Shown piece after piece: positions 5,802 through 58,968 of a stretch of 58,968 nucleotides of DNA; within the stretch, counting starts at the first letter, position 1; each line of letters opens with the position of its first letter. The notes beneath the pieces are model-generated. The model was not told where the DNA came from. It was given only the letters and a program-made list of their open reading frames with translations, and searched no databases. The translations under genes and the position numbers were made by a program. The stretch is from an uncultured Bacilli bacterium (GTDB taxonomy: Bacteria > Bacillota_I > Bacilli_A > RF39 > UBA660), in assembly GCA_944331935.1 (NCBI GenBank), contig CALVIV010000003.1, forward strand, positions 1 through 58,968, given 5' to 3'.

Positions 5802-7402
5802 TGAAAGACATAAAAACAAAAGATAGTTCTCGTAAGGGAATTAAAACGCTTAATAAAGCTAGTGCGTGGACTGAGAGAATTAAAGATCCTATTGTTTATC
5901 TAAATGATAAATCAAACGAAATAAATTCAAACAATAATAATATAAATGAATATGGATCAGACAAAATAAAATATTATAGTAACAGAATTAAAGATGAGAC
6001 AATCCATGGAGCTGGTAAACTAGTAAACAAAGGAAAAACTAGTTTAATAAATAAAATTAAAAGACGAAATATAAAGAATACTGCTGGTACAAGTAAAATT
6101 AAAACAAAGGTAGCTAATGCTAAAAATATAATGAATAATACAAAAAAGGCAGCACAACGAAGTAAACAAATGGCTATTCAAGCTAAAAGACTAGCCATAA
6201 GTATGGCAAGAACTACACGAAGAGCAGTAATGGCTATATCCAAAGGTGTTATTTTAGGAGTTAAAGCATTAATAAGTGCTTTAAGCTCATTAATTGGCTT
6301 ATTGGCAAGCGGTGGAGCAATTGTGATGATAGTAATTATTGTTATATGTCTAATTGCCGCCTTATTAGGTTCAATTTTTGGTATCTTTTTTTCCAATGAT
6401 TCAAATAGTAGAACTATGACTAGTGTTATTAGTGAGATTAATCAAGAGGTTTATAGAAATGTAGAATCACAAAGGCTTTTATCACAAGCAGATGAAATAG
6501 TTTTTGAATCAACCTATTCTAATTGGAAAGAAGTAATTGCGGTTTATTCTGTAAAATATGCTAATGATAATTCGGAAGATGCTGAGATTGTAATGTATTT
6601 AGACGATAAAAACGTTAGAAGATTAAAGACTGTTTTTTATGATTTTAATACAATCATTACTGAAGTTAGAAATGAAGAAAATGCAAATGAAAGTAGTCCA
6701 CCAGAATTTAATAATAATCCAGTTAATGGGCAGGGAAAAACTATATTATATGTAAAAGTCACATCAAAATCTTTAGAAGAAATCATGAATAATTATAGTT
6801 TTAGTGATGACCAAAAAGAACAAGTTAAAGAATTAACTAGTTCAGAATATGATGATATGTGGAGTCATCTATTGTATGGCTCTGAAACAGGAGATTATAT
6901 TTACTGGAGGCAGAAAAATGCAAGTTGGTCAAATATACAAATTGGTAATTCAGGGAAAACAATTAGTGATATTGGTTGTCTAGTTACATCTGTGGCAATT
7001 TTAATACAAAAATCTAATGTTAATAATACAATACTCCCTTTTAATCCTGGTATTTTTGTTGAAAATTTAAATAACAATAATGGATTTGATAATAATGGTA
7101 ATTTACAATATGCTGCCATTACGAAAATAATTCCTAATTTTCAATATAAAGGTAGAGTAACTTTAGCTGGAAAAAGTAAAAATGAAAAATTAAAACTAAT
7201 AAAAACATATCAAGAACAGGGATATTATATAGCTATGGAAGTGTTAGGAGATACAGGTCAGCATTGGGTTGCAGTGATGAATGTTGTTGGTAATGAAATT
7301 AAAATGGTTGATCCTAGTACGGATAATATAGATGTTTGGAATACATATAATTGGAAAAATAGTTCGCAATTTGTGTATTTTCAAGCTAACTTGGCTAGTT
7401 AA
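5801..7402 (+). CDS. membrane-anchored conjugation-associated cell wall hydrolase (C-terminal C39-like/papain-like cysteine peptidase)
   Basis: Seen: the GTG start overlaps the virB4 stop. The N-terminus is Lys-rich, followed by a long hydrophobic segment (GVILGVKALISALSSLIGLLASGGAIVMIVIIVICLIAALLGSIFGIFF). The C-terminus carries the Cys motif SDIGCLVTSVAIL and the His motif GQHWVAV. Inferred: it plays the peptidoglycan-hydrolase role that Tn916 ORF14 and TcpG have. Confidence 0.55.
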   Translation: MKDIKTKDSSRKGIKTLNKASAWTERIKDPIVYLNDKSNEINSNNNNINEYGSDKIKYYSNRIKDETIHGAGKLVNKGKTSLINKIKRRNIKNTAGTSKIKTKVANAKNIMNNTKKAAQRSKQMAIQAKRLAISMARTTRRAVMAISKGVILGVKALISALSSLIGLLASGGAIVMIVIIVICLIAALLGSIFGIFFSNDSNSRTMTSVISEINQEVYRNVESQRLLSQADEIVFESTYSNWKEVIAVYSVKYANDNSEDAEIVMYLDDKNVRRLKTVFYDFNTIITEVRNEENANESSPPEFNNNPVNGQGKTILYVKVTSKSLEEIMNNYSFSDDQKEQVKELTSSEYDDMWSHLLYGSETGDYIYWRQKNASWSNIQIGNSGKTISDIGCLVTSVAILIQKSNVNNTILPFNPGIFVENLNNNNGFDNNGNLQYAAITKIIPNFQYKGRVTLAGKSKNEKLKLIKTYQEQGYYIAMEVLGDTGQHWVAVMNVVGNEIKMVDPSTDNIDVWNTYNWKNSSQFVYFQANLAS

Positions 7403-7425
7403 TTAAGTTGACTAGCCATTTTTTT
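7392..7425 (+). terminator. rho-independent terminator
   Basis: Seen: the perfect 8-bp stem TGGCTAGT/ACTAGCCA spans the stop codon and is followed by T7. Confidence 0.7.
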
Positions 7426-7447
7426 GTTTTAAAAAATATCTTTAAAT

Positions 7448-7469
7448 GAACAAATGTTCGTGATATAAT
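7448..7469 (+). promoter_or_regulatory. LexA (Cheo) box GAACAAATGTTC abutting an extended -10 TGATATAAT
   Basis: Seen: GAAC-N4-GTTC lies at 7448..7459 and TGATATAAT at 7461..7469, about 17 nt upstream of the polymerase start. Known: the Gram-positive LexA/DinR consensus is CGAACRNRYGTTCG. Confidence 0.65.
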
Positions 7470-7485
7470 TATTTTGGTGATACAG

Positions 7486-8988
7486 ATGGGAAGAATTTTT
7501 ATGTGTATTGATTTAAAAAGTTTTTATGCTTCTGTTGAGTGCGTTGAAAGGAAGTTAGATCCATTAAAAACAAATTTAGTTGTTGCTGATGAATCAAGAA
7601 CAGATAAAACTGTATGTTTAGCAATTAGTCCATCATTAAAACAATATGGTTTGGGAGGAAGAGCTAGACTTTTTGAAGTTAAACAAAAAGTAAAGGAGAT
7701 AAACCTTCAAAGGAGAAAATTAAATAACTATAGAAAGTTTAGTGGAAAATCATATTTGGATGAAGAATTAAAGAAAAATAAAAATTTGGAATTAGATTTT
7801 ATTGTAGCTCCACCTAGAATGGCTTATTATATGAAATACAGCACAAATATTTATAATATTTATTTGAAATATATTGCACCAGAGGATATTCTTGTTTATT
7901 CAATAGATGAGGTATTTATTGATATAACTGATTATATTTCACTTTACAAATGTACACCGAGACAATTAGTTACGAAAATGATTAAAGACGTATATGAAAC
8001 AACTGGTATCACTGCTACTGCGGGAATAGGGACGAATATGTTTTTAGCAAAGGTGGCAATGGATATTGTGGCTAAAAAATGTAAACCGAATGAATTTGGA
8101 GTTAGAATTGCTGGTCTAGATGAGATGACTTTTAGAAAGAAATTGTGGGACCATAAGCCAATAACTGATTTTTGGCGTGTTGGTAAAGGAATAGCTAATA
8201 AACTTGCTAAAAATAATATGAACACTATGGGGGATGTTGCAAGATGTTCTCATTATAATGAAGATTTATTATACAAATTATTTGGTGTTAATGCGGAATT
8301 ATTGATTGATCATGCTTGGGGATGGGAACCTTGTACAATTGAAATTGCTAAAAGTTATAAACCGACTGAAACATCACTTAGTTCTGGACAAGTTTTGCAT
8401 GAGCCATATGATAATAAAAAAGCAAAAATTATTGTACAAGAGATGGCGGATAATTTGGCTCTTAATCTAGTAAATAAGAAATTTCTAACAAAACAATTGG
8501 TTTTAACCATAAATTATGATATTGAAAATTTAACTAATCCCGATATTTTTAATAAATATTTTGGAGAAATAACTTTAGATTCGTATGGAAGAAAAATACC
8601 AAAGCATTCTCATGGAACAGTTAATTTAGAGCATTATACTTCTTCGTCTAGCATTATTATGGAAAGCTTTGTGAATTTGTTTGATAAAATTTCTAATCCT
8701 ATTCTGTTAATTAGAAAGCTAAATCTAACGGTAAGTAAATTGATTTGTGAAGATAAAGTTCAGACTAATAAAAAAGTGGAACAAATTAATTTGTTCACTG
8801 ATTATAAAAAAAAGGAGATAGAAGAAGCAAAACAAAAAGATGATGAGAATAAAGAAAAAGAAATACAAAAAGTCATTTTGCAAATAAAAAACAAATATGG
8901 AAAAAATGCTATCTTAAAGGGAATGAATTTGACAGAAGGTGCAACTGCGATTGAAAGGAATAAGCAGATAGGAGGACATCATGAATAA
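7486..8988 (+). CDS. Y-family (UmuC/DinB/UvrX-like) translesion DNA polymerase
   Basis: Seen: the N-terminus reads [26 protein letters not shown] and the SIDEVFID and [12 protein letters not shown] motifs are present. I prefer the ATG at 7486 over the TTG at 7474 given in the ORF track. Confidence 0.85.
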
Positions 8989-28527: not shown

Positions 28528-28581
28528 TTCGACATAATTTTAATAACTCTTTTATTACTATGTAATAAAGGAGATTTTTTT

Positions 28582-29556
28582 ATGAAGAAAAAGTTTATAT
28601 CAAAGAATAAAAAAACTAAAAAAATAAAACCTAAAATCATACTATTCTTTATTATGATTTTTTCTTCATTCCTTTTAACTATTAAAGCTTTATCTAAATA
28701 TAATCTTCCTCATCAAAATAGTGACTTAGTAAATTTTCTAATTGAAAATAATAATCCTTTTATTGTTAATAGTAAATCTAATTATAGTTATTTTCACCAA
28801 CTTATGACTAAATTAATAGATTTAGATTTAACAGATCCATTATCGATATTAGACACTAATTTTAAAGGGCTAACTAAAAAAACAGATTTAGATGATAAAA
28901 AGGTTAGAAAAGTAAGTAATGAAGATGTTGTAAATGAAGAACCAACAATATATCTATATAATTCTCATGATACTGAAGAATATAAACCCTCATCCTTTGC
29001 AGAATATAGTGTTATGCCAACAGTTAAACTATCTGATTATGTTTTAAAAGAAAAGTTGGAAGATAATGGCTTTAGTGTCTTAATAGAAGAACAATCTATT
29101 AGTAGTATTAGAAGTAGTTTAGGACTTAACTATGCTGGAAGTTATGATGCTAGCAGAGTTTTAATGGAACAAGCGAAAGTTAATTATCCTAGCCTAATCT
29201 ATTTTATAGATTTACATAGAGACTCCTTATCTCATGATAAAACAACTCTAACTTATAATGATAAGAACTATGCTAAAGTAATGTTTTTAGTAGGACTAGA
29301 AAATCCTAGTTATCAGGGAAATTTAGACTTTAGTACTAAGATAAGTGAAATGACAAATGCTAAAGTACCAGGACTTTCTAAAGGTATATATGAAAAAGAA
29401 GGAGAGGGTGTAAATGGTATTTATAATCAAGACTTTTCTAATAGAACAATTTTAATAGAAGTAGGGGGACCTGAAAATACAATTGATGAAGTTTATGAGA
29501 CTCTTCTTGTTTTAAGTGATGTCCTAACAGAGGTGATAAAAAGTGACCAAAACTAA
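28582..29556 (+). CDS. spoIIP: stage II sporulation protein P
   Basis: Seen: an N-terminal TM segment, YLYNSHDTEEY, IDLHRDS and ILIEVGG are present. The gene follows gpr. Confidence 0.85.
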   Translation: MKKKFISKNKKTKKIKPKIILFFIMIFSSFLLTIKALSKYNLPHQNSDLVNFLIENNNPFIVNSKSNYSYFHQLMTKLIDLDLTDPLSILDTNFKGLTKKTDLDDKKVRKVSNEDVVNEEPTIYLYNSHDTEEYKPSSFAEYSVMPTVKLSDYVLKEKLEDNGFSVLIEEQSISSIRSSLGLNYAGSYDASRVLMEQAKVNYPSLIYFIDLHRDSLSHDKTTLTYNDKNYAKVMFLVGLENPSYQGNLDFSTKISEMTNAKVPGLSKGIYEKEGEGVNGIYNQDFSNRTILIEVGGPENTIDEVYETLLVLSDVLTEVIKSDQN

Positions 29557-29866
29557 TCTTGCCAGACTAATTATTATTATTTTAGTATTTCTTTTCTTTG
29601 TTTTATATTTTATGCAAGCTTCAGGATATAATGAATATACTAGAAATAGAGAAAATATGTTAACCGAAGAACAAATAAAAGAGTATGAAGAAGATATTGC
29701 AGAAGGGAAAGATGTAACTATCAAAGACTATCTTAATAAAGATAAAATTAATTATGATAATAAAGTATCAGAACTAGGATTAGACTTATCAGAATTAATA
29801 GGAGATGTTTTTAATAAAGGAATGAATGCTTTCTTTGAGATGTTAAATGAAGCGGTATCTTCTTAA
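29543..29866 (+). CDS. small membrane protein, YqxA (DUF3679)-like by position
   Basis: Seen: 107 aa with one N-terminal TM segment, overlapping the spoIIP stop. Known: B. subtilis has yqxA directly after spoIIP. The assignment is positional only. Confidence 0.45.
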   Translation: MTKTNLARLIIIILVFLFFVLYFMQASGYNEYTRNRENMLTEEQIKEYEEDIAEGKDVTIKDYLNKDKINYDNKVSELGLDLSELIGDVFNKGMNAFFEMLNEAVSS

Positions 29867-30084
29867 AAAAAATAACAATAATTATTATTTACCAAAAAGG
29901 ACTATATTGGAGGTTCTTATAGGTTAAAAGCAGGATTAATACCATTTGATGAATTAGTTTTAGATGCAGAAAATCCTTATATCATAAGTTAGATATCATT
30001 ATACTTAAAGAGATATTTCTTAATGATGTCTCTTTTTCTTTATAATTATTTATGATAAAATATGTAACGAAAAGGACTGATGTT

Positions 30085-57404: not shown

Positions 57405-58862
57405 ATGAAAAAACGTGAAAATATCATAATAATTATAGTGTTAGTTGTGATAATATTAGCAATAATAGGAGTATCATACGCAGCCTTTAACTATAGTAGA
57501 GAAGGAACGACGTTAAACACTATAACAACAGGAGCAATAAAGATGACTTATACTGAAGATGATAATATCATCAGTATGAGTGGAGCATTACCTACAACAG
57601 ATGCAACTGGAAAGGTAAGATTAACAGAAGGAGAGTATTTTGATTTTACTATTAGTAGTGAGATTACAGGTAATGTAAATATCAATTATGAGATAAGTGC
57701 AAAAGATGTAACTTCATCAGATAGAAAGATAGATGGTTCTAATATAAAGTTATATCTAACAAGACTAACAGATGATGGTGAAGAAGAGTTAATGACACCA
57801 GAGACTTATAATGAAGAGACAAGTTCAAATAATTTTACAGGTCGTCCATCAGGAGAGATGAGTTTATATACAAGTAGTATGAATGGTAGTGAAAGCAATA
57901 GATATAGATTAAGAATGTATGTAGCAGAAGAATATAATCCACAAGGAGATGGAGGAGGATTGCAGTTTGCTGTACAAATTAATGTCTATGGTAAAGATGG
58001 AGAGAAGCCAGTTCTTTCAGCAGTAGATACATTACTTGCCAAAGTAAATCCAGAAGATTTAGATTATAACAGTGCCACAGATAATCAAAAGAAAGAGATG
58101 TGGACATTTAGTCATCCAGAGACAGAACAAACAGAGGCTTTAACAGATTATAGATATATAGGAAGTGACCCTAATAATTATGTAACATTTAATGATGAAA
58201 CTTGGAGAATAATAGGAGTATTTACAGTAGATGATGGTACAGGTAATGTTGAAGAAAGATTAAAACTAATAAGAGATGAATCTATTGGAAATATGGCATG
58301 GGACTCTAATAGCAGAAATGATTGGCCTAATGCAACGTTAAATACTAATTTAAATAATGGGGGTTATTGGACCAATAGTTTAACTAGTGATGCCAAAAGT
58401 ATGATAGGTGATACTGTATGGTATTTAGGTGGAAGTGGTTCAAATAATGATGTAACTGCATCAATGTTTTATGAAAGGGAAAGAGGAACAACAGTATATA
58501 GTGGCAGAAGTACAAGTTGGACTGGAAAAGTAGGATTAATGTATCCGAGTGATTATGGATATGCTACAAGTGGAGGGACTACAACTGATAGAAATGCCTG
58601 TTTAAATAAGGAATTATTTAACTGGGATAGTGTAAGTGATTGTTACAATAATGACTGGATATTTAACTCAGCATTTCAAATGACAATCACTCCCCGCGCC
58701 TCTGATTCTAACTATGTGTTTCGTCTGCGCGGCACAGGATATGTTCGCAGCGCTGATACGAGCTATGCTAATGGTGTCCGCCCAGTCGTCTTTCTAAAAT
58801 CTAGTATCAAGATTGTTGATGGTGATGGAAGTAGTAGTAATCCATATATATTGCAAAGTTAA
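57405..58862 (+). CDS. secreted / cell-surface protein with N-terminal signal anchor and a C-terminal lectin-like (DUF1566/Lcl-type pattern) domain
   Basis: Seen: the N-terminus is MKKRENIIIIIVLVVIILAIIGVSYAAF and the mature region is Thr/Ser/Asn-rich. The C-terminus reads ...WIFNSAFQMTITP-[variable-looking loop]-GVRPVVFL. The domain assignment is by remembered pattern only. Confidence 0.55.
   Translation: MKKRENIIIIIVLVVIILAIIGVSYAAFNYSREGTTLNTITTGAIKMTYTEDDNIISMSGALPTTDATGKVRLTEGEYFDFTISSEITGNVNINYEISAKDVTSSDRKIDGSNIKLYLTRLTDDGEEELMTPETYNEETSSNNFTGRPSGEMSLYTSSMNGSESNRYRLRMYVAEEYNPQGDGGGLQFAVQINVYGKDGEKPVLSAVDTLLAKVNPEDLDYNSATDNQKKEMWTFSHPETEQTEALTDYRYIGSDPNNYVTFNDETWRIIGVFTVDDGTGNVEERLKLIRDESIGNMAWDSNSRNDWPNATLNTNLNNGGYWTNSLTSDAKSMIGDTVWYLGGSGSNNDVTASMFYERERGTTVYSGRSTSWTGKVGLMYPSDYGYATSGGTTTDRNACLNKELFNWDSVSDCYNNDWIFNSAFQMTITPRASDSNYVFRLRGTGYVRSADTSYANGVRPVVFLKSSIKIVDGDGSSSNPYILQS
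58688..58793 (+). other. compositionally foreign ~106-bp patch inside the CDS (candidate DGR variable region)
   Basis: Seen: by hand count, about 56% GC and about 16% A over 58691..58790, against about 32% GC in the 60 nt on each side. All five Arg codons here are CGC or CGT, whereas the Arg codons I checked in the rest of the gene are AGA. Confidence 0.5.
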
Positions 58863-58968
58863 TAAAGAAGTAGTAAAACACGGCCCTAAAAGAGGCCTTG
58901 TCAAGACTAGTGTGTAAATTTCTATAATATTTTTTCAAATTGTCAAAGAACATATATTATGAACTAAT

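Follow-up and report, generated by a model that had tools for sequence, protein, structure and literature searches.

Described systems and the present locus

Diversity-generating retroelements (DGRs) are reverse-transcriptase systems that mutate only adenines. Reconstituted DGRs have been described (PMC12875486). In the DGR of Bordetella phage BPP-1, the template repeat (TR) lies between avd and the reverse transcriptase (RT) gene. MSL together with Avd defines DGR architecture D, which includes the DGR of Legionella pneumophila (Wu et al., 2018, NAR; PMC5758913). Remote targets are documented as typical of non-phage DGRs, and the Treponema denticola DGR has seven of them, along with an HRDC accessory and a C-type-lectin (CLec) domain of the FGE-sulfatase type (PMC5758913). 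DUF6273, which is CLec-like, is a documented DGR target domain in phage tentaclins, where the variable region (VR) forms a surface hairpin (PMC10743442), and the N-terminal domain of the Thomasclavelia ramosa IgA peptidase is also annotated as DUF6273 (PMC12402451). We analyzed a 58,968-nt stretch of an uncultured Bacilli bacterium (contig CALVIV010000003.1, forward strand; "the window"), in which the gene at 57405-58862 carries near its 3′ end a short GC-rich patch (58688-58793). We read this patch, with a probability of about 0.9, as the VR of a DGR, lying in a non-adjacent target of an MSL-type chromosomal DGR that belongs to an Onthousia-like lineage of gut Bacilli.

Like the MSL-containing DGRs of architecture D, the system found in related genomes encodes a small MutS-domain-I-like protein, Avd and a DGR RT on one strand, is chromosomal and not phage-borne, and has a surface or secreted target with a C-terminal VR. 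This likeness is one of architecture; here the target is followed by MSL, Avd, RT and finally the TR, the target is DUF6273-like, and the hosts are low-GC uncultured gut Bacilli (Onthousia-like, with genomes of ~1.5 Mb). As in T. denticola, with its TvpA and scattered remote targets, one RT and TR appear to serve an adjacent target and at least one distant target, but the present genomes have at most two VR-type sites each and their accessories are MSL and Avd. The BPP-1 DGR (Mtd, Avd, bRT, and the initiation of mutagenic homing sites IMH and IMH*) shares the adenine-specific differences, the AAY-rich TR, the Avd partner, and a GC-rich core common to VR and TR that is followed by VR- or TR-specific 3′ sequence; the present element is instead cellular, has the extra MSL gene and a TR downstream of the RT, and shows no GC hairpin or cruciform directly after the IMH. 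With the DUF6273 targets of gut phages (tentaclins, Faecalibacterium prophages) and with the T. ramosa IgA protease it shares the predicted fold of the VR-bearing domain. The window's protein nevertheless misses the Pfam gathering threshold (13.1 vs 23.5 bits), appears to be a cellular membrane-anchored protein unlike the phage tail targets, and has its VR domain at the C-terminus, where tentaclins have theirs at the N-terminus.

The variable region and its template

Two features are needed from the outset:
57405..58862, plus strand: DGR target gene, 485 amino acids (aa), from the open reading frame (ORF) and an AlphaFold2 (AF2) model
58689..58785, plus strand: VR, 97 nt, aa 429-461 (TPRASDSNYVFRLRGTGYVRSADTSYANGVRP), from comparison with TR allele T0

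The VR was compared with TRs of related genomes; L and P numbers below are our labels for loci fetched from these and for homologous proteins. Allele T0 (97 nt, ACTCCCCACGCC...GGTGTCCGCCCAG; TRs are flanked by TGGTTAATACTCCCCAC and AGCCGATTAATTTTAGG) is identical in six assemblies (L070, L073, L074, L092, L093, L094), five from the BRZ cohort and one from ONAT22-1, and the window's strain occurs in the same two cohorts. VR and T0 align without gaps and mismatch at 17 positions, every one of them among the 34 adenines of the TR and none among its 63 other positions (hypergeometric p = 6e-10). The substitutions are A>G in 11 cases, A>C in 4 and A>T in 2. RT-adjacent VRs on T0 contigs, which serve as in-cis controls, gave 14/0/0 and 17/0/0 (mismatches at A / mismatches at non-A / gaps). 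T0 translates to TPHASNSNNVFNLNNTGYVNSNNTNNTNGVRP, with 12 AAY codons; in the window's VR ten of these are altered, as are a CAC and an ACT codon, solely at codon positions 1 and 2. No TR-like copy occurs in the window (blastn, word size 7), and the exact VR and window-end sequence were not found in JGI metagenome scans.

The target protein has more than 7,900 database relatives. Among 118 homologues of many species, the AAY columns have an entropy of 3.0-3.5 bits, and the columns of the scaffold residues V, F, G and P one of 0-0.6 bits. The flanks WTITP... and ...GVRPVVFLKSSIKIVDGDGSSSNPYILQS are nearly invariant in the closest 60 homologues, and the ~28 residues between them vary freely, also among proteins that are 80-90% identical overall. 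Against P0003-P0012 the VR is 45-67% identical and the remainder of the C-terminal domain 81-93%.

An earlier reading of the letters alone (the sequence-only reading) had proposed a DGR VR at the 3′ end of a lectin-like target, and the adenine-only mismatches, the AAY hypervariability and the DUF6273/CLec-like fold described below bear this out. The repeat mismatched at adenines that it predicted does exist, beside the RT gene of relatives (17/17 at A), and it was right that the window itself holds no such copy. Its ORF and the peptide that it quoted were both correct; the nucleotide string quoted is present too, though at 58686-58791, a trivial 2 nt before the position it was given.

The patch is 54.7% GC and 16.0% A, against 32.4% GC and 39.8% A for the rest of the gene and 26.8% GC for the whole window. 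It is the window's GC maximum and the sole site in the 58,968 nt with a 106-nt frame of at least 50% GC, so that the sharp GC-rich, A-poor block described by the sequence-only reading is confirmed by measurement. Five Arg codons in it are CGC or CGT (58695, 58722, 58728, 58746, 58779). Arg codons in the gene outside the patch comprise 15 AGA, 1 AGG and 2 CGT; the claim that they are AGA elsewhere is thus nearly but not strictly true. An RNA gene as the source of the patch was ruled out, because tRNA, rRNA and Rfam matches are absent both at the patch and across the window.

The composition follows from the template. T0 is 40% GC overall and 62% GC when its adenines are left out, and of the 17 adenines that mutated 15 turned into G or C, which raises the VR to 56% GC and halves its A content relative to the TR. 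Four of the five CGY codons are products of adenine mutation (CAC>CGC, AAT>CGT and two AAC>CGC), the fifth being a scaffold CGC already present in the TR. TR scaffold and adenine mutation together account for the whole of the anomaly in composition and codon use. Alternatively, without any retroelement, recombination or gene conversion could have brought in a foreign GC-rich segment from a homologue in a higher-GC organism; sharp boundaries and atypical codon usage would fit, and the 3′ part of the gene is 90-91% identical in DNA to paralogues in other species. We find this scarcely credible: differences from the TR fall at adenines only, the same scaffold with other A-position substitutions recurs in dozens of low-GC relatives, and the sequence that resembles a donor is a non-coding repeat that immediately follows an RT gene.

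The 3′ junction

Two features describe the end of the VR and what follows it:
58773..58806, plus strand: 3′ VR boundary, IMH-like, from VR/TR alignments
58786..58892, plus strand: post-VR coding tail and start of the 3′ untranslated region (UTR), from invariant columns among target loci

Within 58773-58806, VR and TR share the GC-rich core GGTGTCCGCCCAG, after which the VR has TCGTCTTTCTAAAATC... and the TR has CCGATTAATTTTAGG. Homology ends at ...GTCCGCCCAG, from where the VR continues as TCGTCTTTC and the TR as CCGATTAAT. The VR-type junction is invariant across all target loci, and the pattern CCAGTCGTCTTTCTAAARTCTA has at most two occurrences per related genome. As judged from these alignments, the 3′ asymmetry between VR and TR is as expected for IMH/IMH*. 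Past the IMH there is no significant structure; folded as DNA, 58765-58910 scores z = -0.9 against shuffles. The 107 nt at 58786-58892 (the last 25 codons, the stop and the start of the 3′ UTR) are near-invariant in DNA across the target loci of different species, synonymous and third positions included; they may be part of a target-recognition signal or may have been homogenized by gene conversion.

The retroelement in related genomes

Scanning the fetched loci for motifs revealed a 360-aa RT ORF with the motifs IGNMTSQ and YMDD, ~0.9 kb 3′ of a paralogous target, in L012 (Ca. Onthousia excrementipullorum), L013 (OZ006970.1, a closed 1.52-Mb Bacilli metagenome-assembled genome) and L015. The paralogous, cassette-adjacent target is 61-63% identical to the window's target. 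The cassette consists of a prepilin-type gene, the target (464 aa), MSL (127 aa), bAvd (115 aa), RT and then the TR, and its wider neighborhood runs Vut_1, pilin-like gene, target, MSL, Avd, RT, TR, UvrC. In these relatives the TR, 97-100 nt long, directly follows the RT stop and is a non-coding repeat of the window's patch; RT and TR adjoin in all related cassette loci. The neighbors are housekeeping genes (LepA, D-Ala-D-Ala carboxypeptidase, UvrC, MutL), and the cassette is therefore chromosomal.

MSL is a MutS-domain-I protein (PF01624, MutS_I, 26.6 bits, above the 20.6-bit cut-off). For the Avd of the relatives the best NCBIfam match is DivGenRetAVD (NF033474, E 3e-13), with Pfam bAvd (PF22296) at E 4e-9. 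The RT matches RVT_1 (E 3e-18); among PDB sequences it is closest to 8ub7 ("Reverse transcriptase", 328 aa, E 3e-20), which is probably bRT of BPP-1. Its nearest phage relatives include the RTs of crAss-like phages and of phage nd12, a DGR-carrying phage (PMC10743442). RT and Avd, which the sequence-only reading had also predicted, are thus present beside the TR in relatives; tblastn of the 59-kb window found no RT, Avd or MSL, nor a second member of the target family.

The proposed mechanism is established mutagenic retrohoming, and the kind of system is already known. The TR would be transcribed, and a complex of RT and Avd would copy it into complementary DNA (cDNA), misincorporating opposite adenines. 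The cDNA would then replace the VR of any gene with a matching IMH-type 3′ junction and 5′ homology, including, in trans, that of the window's gene. The strain's own genome presumably still holds the cassette, and homing on the window's copy would be in trans.

Some further observations concern the cassette. The prepilin-type gene, with an N_methyl motif, ends 2-3 nt before the start of the adjacent target (L013 9543-9935; L073 3294-3677; L084 4361-4753), and another N_methyl gene comes after UvrC; the window's target has no such neighbor. A link between the cassette-adjacent target and a type IV pilus or Com-like apparatus is possible. In the SI.A50 genome the 3′ third of the TR (L015 13366-13470 = L055 6875) is dissimilar to other TRs and lacks the GTCCGCCCAG core (...GGCGTGTGGCATTTCC), and this TR may be damaged.

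The target protein

The domain that carries the VR is:
58152..58859, plus strand: C-terminal ligand-binding domain, aa 250-485, with a predicted DUF6273-type (C-type-lectin-like) fold, from AF2 and Foldseek

The protein begins with a membrane anchor or signal helix (aa 1-30; AF2 helix at aa 2-30), followed by a β-sandwich region at ~aa 38-200 (strands at 38-199, AF2, moderate confidence). The C-terminal domain is well modelled in the full-length AF2 prediction, and when modelled alone (aa 250-485) reaches pLDDT 89.4 and pTM 0.88. Sequence searches of the target protein against PDB, Pfam and NCBIfam gave nothing above threshold, and the fold assignment comes from structure prediction. Foldseek against PDB matched the C-terminal domain to 9qa6, the T. 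ramosa IgA peptidase (E 1.5e-9, TMq 0.59), with weak C-type-lectin matches below it. Against the viral library BFVD, it returned many DUF6273 proteins (E down to 4e-10), with DUF1566 proteins ranked lower. The Pfam DUF6273 (PF19789) match is sub-threshold (E 0.087), though it spans positions 25-171 of the 172-position profile, and one homologue (P0071) has a precomputed PF19789 match. We therefore call the predicted fold of the domain DUF6273-like and do not count it as a Pfam member. The sequence-only reading had suggested a lectin-type fold here, and the models agree with it.

According to the models, the target is a membrane-anchored or secreted protein that displays the VR on its C-terminal domain, and it would bind a variable ligand at the cell surface. 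The N-terminal 200-220 aa (57405-58060, the membrane helix and β-sandwich) are common to many paralogues per genome (loci L017-L044), with at least 10 loci of this kind in BRZ_PQ bin74. Most of these paralogues have no VR-type 3′ end; the surface-protein family is large, and in each genome just one or two of its members serve as DGR targets.

A target away from the cassette

The window ends shortly after the target gene, in two features:
58874..58895, plus strand: intrinsic terminator remnant (5′ arm and loop), by comparison with the full terminator of relatives, CACGGCCCTAAAAG..CTTTTGGCCGTGCTTTTTTTT
58896..58968, minus strand: terminal part of an IS256-family (Transposase_mut) element that runs past the window end, by similarity to the insertion sequence (IS) of L091

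We examined where the window's gene lies relative to the cassette. Its upstream neighbors (sigma factor, polysaccharide deacetylase, PGP phosphatase, YqeH) show synteny with L003/L007, L008 and L091. In L007 an intact intrinsic terminator and then frr come after the target, there is no RT within 10 kb, and neither L003/L007 nor L091 has a cassette next to the target gene. The closed genome OZ006970.1 has one TR and two VR-type junctions, the second ~63 kb from the TR; the DGR of this lineage therefore has one adjacent and one non-adjacent target. Going by its gene neighborhood, the window's gene is the non-adjacent one.

The sequence-only reading had placed the cassette just beyond the window end, with Avd, TR and RT directly after the target. 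Such an arrangement is seen at the paralogous targets of L012, L013, L015 and L073, where MSL, Avd, RT and TR start within ~220 nt after the adjacent target. For the window's gene we consider it very unlikely. The last 73 nt of the window are the end of the IS256-like element and not the region upstream of MSL, the syntenic genes of L007, L008 and L091 are followed by frr or an IS with no RT within 10 kb, and the cassette-linked target always stands after Vut_1 and the pilin-like gene. Nor did following the contig further reach a cassette, since in the three assemblies where contig ends could be read (L001, L002, L090) all stop inside the IS256-like element; multi-copy repeats do break short-read assemblies in this way.

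The sequence of the window diverges from all relatives inside the terminator loop, after CTAAAAG. From there, the 61 nt of 58896-58956 align at 96.7% identity (E 1.5e-23) with the reverse-complemented right end of the L091 IS, which encodes a transposase matching PF00872 (E 2e-102); the window includes 73 nt of the element. L091 is the closest non-identical relative, and its IS comes after the orthologous gene. The insertion lies 34 nt past the stop of the target gene. A hairpin at 58878-58901, remarked on by the sequence-only reading as lying just past the stop, does exist but is weak (8-bp stem with one mismatch), and consists of the 5′ arm of the old terminator paired with GG and the IS terminus CCTTGT. 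It was rejected as a DGR cruciform (z = -0.9), being a terminator remnant fused to an IS end where relatives have the terminator intact.

In L091 the related IS (6757-8934) stands in the opposite orientation directly after the stop of the orthologous gene, and the IS left-end motif CTAGTGTGT(G)TAAAT is also found just 3′ of the target genes in L008 and L011. ISs thus seem to have landed repeatedly in the 3′ flank of the target genes.

Elsewhere in the window, 28552-29870 (a SpoIIP-like gene and a 107-aa ORF) is 98.3% identical in DNA and 99.7% in protein to O. excrementipullorum DVHC01000030 (L012 1-1318), where this stretch lies ~10 kb upstream of the DGR cassette. The synteny breaks exactly at 29870, and the window's genome is thus rearranged there relative to Onthousia and OZ006970.1.

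Template alleles and present activity

Several observations weigh against the reading of the patch as the VR of a DGR acting in this strain. The VR is identical in all near-identical strain contigs, which come from several samples: the exact window protein occurs on 6 contigs, P0001 differs from it by 1 aa and P0002 by 7 aa. There is thus no direct sign of ongoing diversification in the lineage. The TR used for comparison comes from related genomes, the strain's own TR and RT not having been recovered. The Avd matches fall below curated cut-offs (49.8 vs 80 and 37.3 vs 40 bits). Finally, O. excrementipullorum, 98.3% identical to the window at the SpoIIP-like region, the one 1.3-kb stretch that allows comparison, carries a TR of another type (type B, below). 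As a separate matter, all 7 differences between P0002 and the window protein fall within aa 139-176 (57819-57932), 38 residues of the N-terminal domain, and such clustering looks like recombination over a short tract, not like mutations scattered along the gene.

Present activity of VR diversification in this strain is accordingly uncertain. The VR could be a fossil or orphan, written by past retrohoming and no longer diversified here, a view that differs from our own on present activity only; RT loss or disruption, a different resident TR allele or very rare homing could each be the cause. It would explain why the VR stayed unchanged in near-identical contigs as 1-7 substitutions arose elsewhere in the protein, and it is in keeping with the frequent mismatch between VRs of related genomes and the TR on their own contig, with an RT gene interrupted in three assemblies, and with the IS that landed 34 nt after the stop. 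On the other side, the IMH-type junction, the VR reading frame as a whole and the ORF are intact, and many related genomes have intact cassettes and perfect adenine-only cis pairs. Invariance among strains over short times is, moreover, also known in active DGRs with low homing rates. We regard a fossil VR as a serious possibility, at somewhat worse than even odds.

At least two TR alleles occur, type A of 97 nt and type B of 100 nt. The window's VR mismatches the type B TR at 7 non-A positions and by a 3-nt gap, and, to judge from sequence, the resident TR of the strain may be other than the T0-type template that wrote the VR. On the type-B TR contigs L012, L087, L088 and L089 the adjacent VRs fit type A. 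Against their own TR, VRs scored (A / non-A / gap) 13/8/3 in L012, 16/9/3 in L087/L089, 11/11/3 in L088 and 20/6/0 in L013/L075, and those at 13/8/3 and 16/9/3 score 14/1/0 and 16/1/0 against T0. These discordant sites lie at L012 11162/13341, L087 6911, L088 5829, L089 1192, L013 and L075 (VR 11159 / TR 13342) and L008 11294. The adjacent VR of OZ006970.1, whose TR is type A (variant T1), fits no recovered allele, with 20/6/0 to T1, 16/3/3 to the type B T2, and 5 non-A mismatches to T0; BRZ_EC bin54, with a type A TR, has a type-B VR at the frr locus. A second TR that could explain the type-B VRs was not found, searches with the TR 5′ and 3′ flanks giving one TR per genome, OZ006970.1 included. 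On these comparisons, VRs that mismatch their own TR have apparently not been rewritten since the TR allele changed, and a VR can persist after its template has gone.

In three independent assemblies a repeated element breaks the RT gene after ~codon 108 (GGTTCTTCCGAAAGTTTGCGGATTAACC...; L084 7395-7449, L085 3134-3209, L086 1887-1960), and the same sequence occurs at the contig end of L020 (11-76). The three interrupted loci have an identical adjacent VR. The interrupting sequence probably represents a second mobile element, one by which the RT is inactivated. The truncated RT cluster member P0243 was considered as a frameshifted RT and rejected, its truncation reflecting either the end of a contig or the junction of an insertion.

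Between genomes whose flanks are 79-88% identical, the MSL-Avd-RT-TR block reaches 94.8-97.4% DNA identity (L013 11555-13560 vs L012, L073, L087 and L015), and the RT falls in a 90% protein cluster of 277 members. These figures suggest that related species exchange the cassette, or that it is under an unusual constraint at the DNA level. A tentative and rather doubtful extension is that the cassette has been exchanged as a unit among gut Bacilli, swapping TR alleles, so that many VRs, possibly the window's, record a lost template. If so, diversification of the targets would be episodic, driven by cassette turnover and not by continuous homing, and the window's strain would hold a type-A VR without a matching TR.

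Implications

Our understanding of how DGRs work is left unchanged by this locus. A composition anomaly alone can flag a DGR target whose retroelement lies tens of kb away or on another contig, a remote target that DGR finders needing a nearby RT and TR would miss. The related loci form a natural data set on the ageing of DGRs, with TR/VR mismatch, flanks that are less conserved than the cassette, and IS insertions in the RT gene and beside the target gene. With this finding an uncultured, small-genome lineage of gut Bacilli (Onthousia-like) gains an MSL-type chromosomal DGR whose target is a DUF6273-like surface protein.

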